Source: Escherichia coli
Lineage (GTDB): Bacteria > Pseudomonadota > Gammaproteobacteria > Enterobacterales > Enterobacteriaceae
Direction: 5' to 3' (one strand)
DNA length: 64,000 nucleotides
Assembly: GCF_050920415.1 (NCBI RefSeq)
Contig: NZ_CP169309.1
Of the stretch, positions 52,645 to 53,294 are shown one piece after another. Made by a program: the position numbers and the translations under genes. Below the pieces are notes generated by a model, which worked only from the letters and a program-made list of their open reading frames with translations, searched no databases and was not told the DNA's origin. The first letter of the stretch is position 1; every line of letters begins with the position of its first letter.

Positions 52645-52680
52645 AAAGCCCGCCTGAACCGGCGGGCTGTCATAACACTG
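52645..52680 (-). terminator. Intrinsic terminator downstream of lom
   Basis: AGCCCGCC-GGTTCA-GGCGGGCT hairpin followed by TTTTTTGTGG on the minus strand. Confidence 0.7.
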
Positions 52681-52694
52681 TGTTACCTGGCTAA

Positions 52695-53294
52695 TCAGAA
52701 TTTATAACCGACACCCACGATGAAACCGTCAGTGCGCCAGTCACCACTGCCGGAGCCTTCATAAGCAATATCAATGGCCACGGATTCGGTCGGGTTAAAC
52801 TGCACGCCAGCCCCCCACGCCAGAGACGTGTTGCTGTGGCGACCGTCATCACTTCCGGTCAGCACATCGTGCGTTTTCCCCTTATTGTCAGTTACGCGGA
52901 GATAATCCCCGGAGAAAGTCGACACACGGCTGTAAGCCACACCCGCCATCGCATACGCGCTGAACCATTCATTCACGCGCACAGACGGCCCCGCCATTAC
53001 GCTGAACCAGCGGTTACGAACGGAATCTTCATGCCAGCGGGTATCACTGTAACGGGTCAGCTGGCGATTCTTGTCTCCTGCATAGCTGAATGACGTCACC
53101 AGCCCCAGCGTGTCCGTAAATTCATAACGGTATTTCACGTTAATGCCCTTCAGGTCATCGTTTCCGGGCATATCAGTATGGGACTGAAGATACCCGCCGC
53201 TTAGTGTGGACTGATGCTCTGCTGCACTCGCTGGCGTACCAGCGGCGACCAGCCAGACTACTGCAGACAGAATAACAGCACATAATTTACGCAT
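52695..53294 (-). CDS. lom: Outer membrane protein Lom (Ail/PagC/OmpX family)
   Basis: 199 aa, signal peptide MRKLCAVILSAVVWLVAAGTPASA, C-terminal ...VGVGYKF; lambda position between J and stf. Confidence 0.9.
   Translation of the reverse strand: MRKLCAVILSAVVWLVAAGTPASAAEHQSTLSGGYLQSHTDMPGNDDLKGINVKYRYEFTDTLGLVTSFSYAGDKNRQLTRYSDTRWHEDSVRNRWFSVMAGPSVRVNEWFSAYAMAGVAYSRVSTFSGDYLRVTDNKGKTHDVLTGSDDGRHSNTSLAWGAGVQFNPTESVAIDIAYEGSGSGDWRTDGFIVGVGYKF

Follow-up and report, generated by a model that had tools for sequence, protein, structure and literature searches.

The 64,000-nucleotide stretch of Escherichia coli DNA analysed here (contig NZ_CP169309.1; hereafter the window) harbours an intact lom gene of a lambda-like prophage. 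Its product belongs to the Ail/OmpX/PagC/Rck/Lom family, and the gene is the positional orthologue of lambda lom, of which it constitutes a distinct allele. It is enclosed by two terminator-like hairpins, one on each side, and promoter searches upstream of it returned nothing above chance level. Taken as a whole, the explanation set out below, which comprises the assignment to a lambda-like prophage and to the family together with the models of the protein and of its transcription, is given a probability of roughly 85%. The allele itself is already known, since RefSeq and many phage records carry it in annotated form. The features to which the text refers are as follows.

52695..53294, minus strand: lom open reading frame, 199 aa, ATG start, TGA stop, intact
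53223..53294, minus strand: predicted Sec signal peptide MRKLCAVILSAVVWLVAAGTPASA, lom codons 1-24, from the sequence layout, cleavage after ASA
52695..53222, minus strand: mature Lom, residues 25-199 plus the TGA stop, 8-stranded outer-membrane beta-barrel ending GVGYKF
52642..52668, minus strand: intrinsic terminator after lom, AGCCCGCC-GGTTCA-GGCGGGCT then TTTTT, from terminator scan and fold
53319..53343, minus strand: terminator-like hairpin between J and lom, GGGCGCCA-GAAA-TGGCGCCT then TTTTT, from terminator scan, fold and covariation
53300..53305, minus strand: Shine-Dalgarno sequence GAGAGG, 5 nt before the lom ATG, within the 32-nt leader
53362..57060, minus strand (stop codon 53364..53362): tail-tip gene J, 1232 aa, upstream of lom
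ATG at 52630, minus strand: side-tail-fibre gene stf, downstream of lom
49954..50541, minus strand: DUF4376 gene, last open reading frame of the prophage, after stf
48856..49719, plus strand: potB, chromosomal, adjoining the prophage, with potA beyond it; opposite strand to lom

Identity of the gene and architecture of its product

Profile searches established the identity of the gene product, which was matched from end to end (positions 1-199 of 199) by the Pfam family PF06316 (Ail_Lom) at 404 bits, the cut-off being 23 (E 1.2e-121), in addition to the generic Pfam model OMP_b-brl and PHROG 108, 'Lom outer membrane protein' (E 3.7e-106). Among the sequences of solved structures in the PDB the best matches were lambda Lom (9wso_C, E 5.8e-50), OmpX (approximately 4e-20) and Yersinia Ail (approximately 4e-18). 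The top NCBIfam match was the Rck model NF011777 (E 1.4e-34), however, the equivalog cut-off of this model, which stands for resistance to complement killing, was missed by a wide margin (119.5 bits versus 258), and that of the OmpX equivalog NF006917 was likewise missed (106.9 bits versus 176). As the protein falls below both cut-offs it is assigned to the Lom branch of the family rather than to either of these two, and owing to its distance from the Rck cut-off the complement-resistance function cannot be transferred to it. Nothing was found that contradicts the family assignment. The initial annotation, which gave no strand, had described the gene as an intact prophage-encoded Lom of the Ail/PagC family, and this description is borne out by the full-length open reading frame, the end-to-end Pfam match, the J and stf domains recognised beside it, and the RefSeq annotation of the same locus in E. 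coli GB089.

The signal peptide that had also been proposed is corroborated by the amino-terminal sequence, where inspection by eye and alignment revealed the n/h/c layout of a Sec substrate, namely MRK, a 16-residue hydrophobic core and TPASA followed by A, with the ASA cleavage motif at its end. The mature OmpX and Ail chains of the PDB align with the lom product only from residue 26-29 onwards, and AlphaFold placed a helix of lower confidence (pLDDT 64-69) at residues 2-18 ahead of the barrel. The model of the protein (pLDDT 92.4) was obtained with a 56-sequence family alignment drawn from an exhaustive search that had covered 1.84 billion representatives and returned 427 relatives at E <= 1e-3, and it contains eight strands, at residues 29-40, 48-58, 63-81, 86-106, 111-135, 141-166, 172-181 and 188-198. 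Foldseek returned Ail (3QRA, E 1.3e-14) and OmpX (1QJ9, E 1.4e-13) as the top fold matches of this model. The barrel motifs are all intact. At the carboxy terminus (...FIVGVGYKF), G196 is invariant and Y197 and F199 are nearly so across the 56 sequences. By reference to the family, the Lom precursor would be exported by the Sec pathway and then inserted by BAM through its C-terminal beta-signal.

Among 59 distinct loci, variable sites at the first, second and third codon positions of lom numbered 35, 30 and 85, respectively, and this third-position bias indicates purifying selection on the Lom protein. Amino acid variation among close relatives is densest at residues 71-93 and 131-158, which correspond to those parts of strands 3-4 and 5-6 that lie close to the tip, and the turns at residues 59-62 and 107-110 are invariant in the same set. 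Judging from the topology of OmpX and Ail, the long strand pairs 3-4 and 5-6 would form extracellular protrusions, which, again by extension from the family, may act as a surface-exposed adhesin-like module.

Comparison with solved members of the family is consistent with this architecture. Lambda Lom (206 aa; PDB 9wso chain C) has in common with the window Lom the position of its gene between J and stf, the family, the fold, the signal peptide and the C-terminal ...DWRTDGFIVGVGYKF. DNA identity to the window reaches 90% or more over the last ~85 nt of lambda lom, the terminator downstream of it and the initial ~30 nt of stf (52778 to 52599), whereas it drops to ~50-60% over most of the gene, the proteins are 45% identical, and the window Lom is 7 residues shorter. 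The lowest chain letter of lambda Lom in PDB 9wso is C, and the entry may thus contain other molecules; it was absent from the PDB matches of both the window J and the window Stf, and no paper on this entry was found. Yersinia Ail (3QRA) and E. coli OmpX (1QJ8/1QJ9) form the same 8-stranded barrel as the window Lom, with Foldseek TM values of 0.83-0.85 relative to the target, yet they are just 30-34% identical to it, and the mature part of the window Lom is ~25 residues longer and has longer strand pairs 3-4 and 5-6. Furthermore, the Ail and OmpX genes are chromosomal, whereas the window lom is prophage-borne. The complement-resistance proteins Rck and PagC of Salmonella share the Pfam family with the window Lom, with the limit, as regards Rck, that is set by the equivalog score given above.

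The Lom of phages 933W and Phi24B (LomW type, about 243 aa) is also a prophage-borne member of this family, although it displays only ~32% identity to the window Lom. The context of the 933W/Phi24B gene differs as well, these being short-tailed Stx phages. At the other end of the scale, the Lom of phage PhiR55_1 is 97.5% identical to the window protein, three IMG/VR loci (L002, L003 and L006) encode proteins identical to it, and neither the GB089 protein WP_047085483.1 nor the lom genes of lambdoid E. coli phages and prophages such as PhiR55_1 and VT1-Sakai differ materially from what is found in the window. The lom paralogues of O157:H7 are reportedly named lomK, lomU and lomW in the literature. 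Several lom paralogues per O157 strain have been described (PMC4321836).

Prophage setting and the hairpins that flank lom

The window lom is the first gene after J and lies on the strand of the tail genes, the J-lom-stf order on a single strand being that of lambda, and the domains of J and stf were recognised by Pfam on either side of it. Its region is 100% identical across 861 nt to that of E. coli GB089, where RefSeq annotates the product, WP_047085483.1, as 'Ail/Lom family outer membrane beta-barrel protein' and where the gene order runs J-lom-stf-DUF4376 and then potB-potA-pepT-roxA-phoQ-phoP; the window and GB089 are 98.1% identical over a length of 23 kb. The junction between prophage and chromosome falls within 49720-49953, and with the DUF4376 gene bordering the end of potB the prophage is located directly downstream of that gene. 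DNA related to lom was detected in 4806 of the 5426 complete E. coli genomes (~89%), at 15,779 places; the carrying genomes have 2 copies at the median and 14 at most, and 222 phage records carry such DNA also. The closest genomes have 3-7 matching places each, and the window lom is therefore one of several copies per genome. A GC anomaly was considered as a mark of horizontal acquisition and rejected, as the GC content of lom (0.55-0.58) does not deviate from that of its neighbours (0.46-0.61).

Two observations concern the neighbouring tail genes. At ~50605 (window 50590-50620) the window stf has one C fewer than that of GB089 (GCGCTTTGGGCC versus GCGCTTTCGGGCC), a 1-bp deletion that shifts the frame of the last ~22 codons. 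The open reading frame becomes 20 codons longer as a result, reaching 50480 instead of 50540 and running into the next gene. The deletion is either genuine, in which case it recalls the stf frameshift of laboratory lambda, or an assembly error. J comprises 1232 aa as compared to 1132 in lambda, the alignment with lambda J covering residues 1-836 and 941-1232. The insertion of ~100 residues that separates these parts (about 837-940, window 54241-54552) is E/Q-rich with heptad-like repeats and, by eye, has the look of a coiled coil.

A terminator scan of 2.2 kb returned 8 sites as compared to 2.2 +/- 1.4 in shuffled sequences, and the first two sites listed flank lom. The downstream one was correctly described by the initial annotation as a strong terminator immediately after the gene: its stem (52668..52647) consists of 8 pairs, 7 of them G-C, with a 6-nt loop, is followed by TTTTT at 52646..52642, has a free energy of -17.6 kcal/mol for the hairpin alone, and ends 11 nt before the stf ATG. 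The start at 52645 that had been given for the region cuts off 3 nt of this U-tract, a trivial matter. Across 12 distinct variants, taken from 77 related loci and lambda, 95.8% of the cells of the stem alignment are paired; all in-stem changes give a G-U wobble, and compensatory, that is double-sided, changes number zero.

The second hairpin, which lies between J and lom and went unmentioned in the initial annotation, has 8 pairs (53343..53324), 6 of them G-C, a 4-nt loop and a T run of five extending to 53319, with a free energy of -15.1 kcal/mol, and it ends 24 nt before the lom ATG. The 67-nt J-lom intergenic region folds with a z of -2.7, and none of 200 shuffled sequences folded as well. 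In the 11 distinct variants found among the 77 loci, 100% of the cells are paired, and two pairs have undergone changes on both sides, from G-C to A-U and from C-G to U-A (GGGCACC/GGTGCC and GGGCGTC/GACGCC), one locus containing a G-U intermediate; in a small sample of related sequences this covariation is supportive rather than conclusive of a selected structure. Hairpins occupy the same junction in lambda, where CGTCCG-GGAA-CGGGCG then TTTTATTAT is found, and in the 56%-identical allele of locus L084, with GGCGCTC-AACT-GAGCGCC then TTTTTCTTTT. Neither resembles the window type in sequence, and the lambda hairpin, although it shares the T run, is weaker (-9.1 versus -15.1 kcal/mol). Since hairpins with T runs of unrelated sequence are present in all three alleles, a terminator after J looks to be a general property of J-lom-stf loci. 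L084 also has a hairpin after lom (3136-3180; GCCCGCC-AGTG-GGCGGGC), which is without a T run, and in this locus it is thus the upstream element that resembles a full, canonical intrinsic terminator, whereas the downstream element does not.

Insertion sequences (IS) were encountered at these hairpins in other loci. In L069 (2100-2760) an IS200-like transposase gene with an end hairpin has inserted directly behind the T run with which the lom terminator ends, and the junction sequence of L069 recurs in L072, L077 and L080. In L020 (200-1440) the insertion is that of an IS3-family element and lies immediately 5' of the J-lom hairpin; the open reading frames were read in L069 and L020 only. IS elements target the edges of the lom cassette. 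An attempt to read the natural borders of this cassette from the divergence by the T run (L069, L072, L077 and L080) or by the upstream hairpin (L020) was abandoned on account of the insertions in L069 and L020.

The stretch from the upstream T run up to the lom start codon forms a leader of 32 nt (53295-53326) which includes the Shine-Dalgarno sequence and in which just 3 of 32 columns vary among the 59 distinct loci, as compared to 85 of 199 third codon positions (43%). This constraint exceeds the obvious need of a ribosome-binding site alone, and could reflect either a requirement of translation initiation or a regulatory element that escaped recognition.

Promoter searches and the transcription of lom

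The initial annotation held that the signal peptide and the strong terminator agree with expression of lom in the lysogen independently of the late operon, and proposed a promoter search upstream of the gene. Of this the terminator stands, however, the layout does not constitute evidence of independence, for the promoter search yielded nothing above chance and a second terminator separates lom from J. Within 52000-54200, a consensus scan of the lom strand identified nothing that resembles a sigma-70 site. In the 600 nt upstream of lom the best score of a PWM scan was 8.3 bits, which corresponds to the 99.7th percentile of window positions; over 600 nt about two such matches are expected by chance, and this score is thus at chance level. 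All usable candidates returned by the PWM scan upstream of lom are located 5' of the J-lom terminator, with the proviso that weak or activator-dependent promoters may escape consensus scans. A sigma-54-like TGGCGC...TTGCA that overlaps the upstream terminator was rejected by eye, its spacing being 8 nt rather than 5. A search of the whole window with Rfam at gathering threshold returned only C0299, and none at lom, while a permissive Rfam scan of 52400-53600 returned two sub-threshold chance matches only. The C0299 small RNA (10910-10988, minus strand, 109.9 bits) is situated in the chromosomal part of the window and is unrelated to lom. The literature that was searched contained neither a mapped lom promoter nor a mapped J-lom terminator.

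A terminator behind a gene is no evidence of a promoter in front of it, as the Q-antiterminated late transcript reads through terminators, and the terminator between J and lom would stop any transcript from upstream that is not antiterminated. Q is required for the late transcript of lambda, and lambda does not need lom in order to form plaques (PMC10695390). By this reasoning lom would be transcribed during lytic growth within the Q-antiterminated late transcript, which would ignore both terminators, and in the repressed prophage the same two terminators would insulate it. Expression in the lysogen would then need a weak or regulated promoter that is hidden from consensus methods.

Such expression may be proposed for the window gene solely by analogy with lambda lom and Phi24B lom. 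Lambda lysogens have been reported to express lom and bor (PMC7067206, PMC1151598), and Phi24B lom was reported to be constitutively expressed in lysogens, uncoupled from induction (PMC3342100, PMC4651098); lambda lom was undetected in the lysogen by one array study (PMC2147009). If the analogy applies, a promoter may have been missed at the window lom by the simple sigma-70 scans. Phi24B-type lom differs in that no Rho-independent terminator was found around it, whereas the window gene is flanked by one on each side, and the small RNA 24B_1 adjoins Phi24B lom (PMC4426718), a different lom type in a context other than that of the window.

Readings of the role of Lom

The reading closest to that of the initial annotation regards lom as a classical moron, a self-contained unit with a constitutive promoter and a terminator of its own, from which a lysogenic-conversion factor is made in the repressed prophage. 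We consider this possible though somewhat improbable. A moron is defined by its own promoter and terminator (PMC3594210), and the window lom possesses a conserved downstream terminator, an unusually conserved leader between the upstream terminator and its ATG, and homologues in lambda and Phi24B for which expression in lysogens is on record (PMC7067206, PMC1151598, PMC3342100, PMC4651098). These homologues are, however, just 45% and about 32% identical to the window Lom, one array study saw no lambda lom signal in the lysogen (PMC2147009), sigma-70-like sites are absent from the lom strand and the PWM scores at chance, with candidates confined to positions 5' of a strong terminator, only 24 nt remain between that terminator and the ATG, and the GC content of lom is not deviant. 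Like the morons described previously (HK97 gene 15; Juhala 2000, Cumby 2012), lom is an accessory, non-essential gene in a tail operon with its own terminator; unlike them it lacks a detectable promoter of its own, its GC content is not deviant, and its additional upstream terminator lies outside the definition. The label of moron therefore fits by half, as the terminator is present whereas a visible promoter and a compositional signature are not.

A second reading, which we judge unlikely, is that Lom works for the benefit of the phage and not for host virulence, in that it is made mainly late and changes the envelope of the cell that is infected or undergoing lysis, for instance to limit re-adsorption of progeny or superinfection. 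The position of lom inside the tail and host-recognition block, kept as J-lom-stf in three divergent alleles, and the terminators on both sides together with the lack of a visible promoter, which favour expression from the late operon, are in agreement with such a role. Direct evidence for it was not found in the literature searched, lambda forms plaques without lom (PMC10695390), and adhesion to buccal cells of human origin is the sole phenotype reported (cited in PMC1151598 as well as PMC3594210). Carried further, the widespread lom allele might be a promoter-less cassette between two selected terminators, with Lom produced essentially only from the Q-antiterminated late transcript as an envelope protein of the lytic phase that has a phage-directed role and is not a lysogenic-conversion factor, and with the post-J terminator as a deliberate boundary between the essential tail genes and an accessory lom-stf-tfa block; this is a speculation to which we give little credence.

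That lom is an unexpressed and decaying remnant of a defective prophage is very improbable, since, although the 1-bp deletion in the neighbouring stf relative to GB089 suggests that the tail-fibre module has decayed to some extent or that the assembly is in error, lom itself is full length and matched end to end by the family profile, its variation in 59 distinct loci is strongly biased to third positions, and its ribosome-binding site and both terminators are conserved.

The preferred reading thus remains that of an intact lom of a lambda-like prophage, and the properties commonly ascribed to such genes have to be apportioned with care. The association of Lom homologues with adhesion and serum resistance, as put forward by the initial annotation, holds for the family as a whole, serum resistance and invasion being properties of Ail, Rck and PagC (PMC8508112), however, it does not hold in full for lambda, where adhesion is ascribed to Lom, and resistance to serum to Bor instead (PMC1151598).

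Homologues of Lom count among the textbook examples of accessory genes in lambdoid prophages, and the window lom in itself matters little. [quoted passage not shown] For this reason, claims that such genes contribute to adhesion or serum resistance of STEC need to be accompanied by expression data, and to take account of the 3-7 copies that the closest genomes carry.
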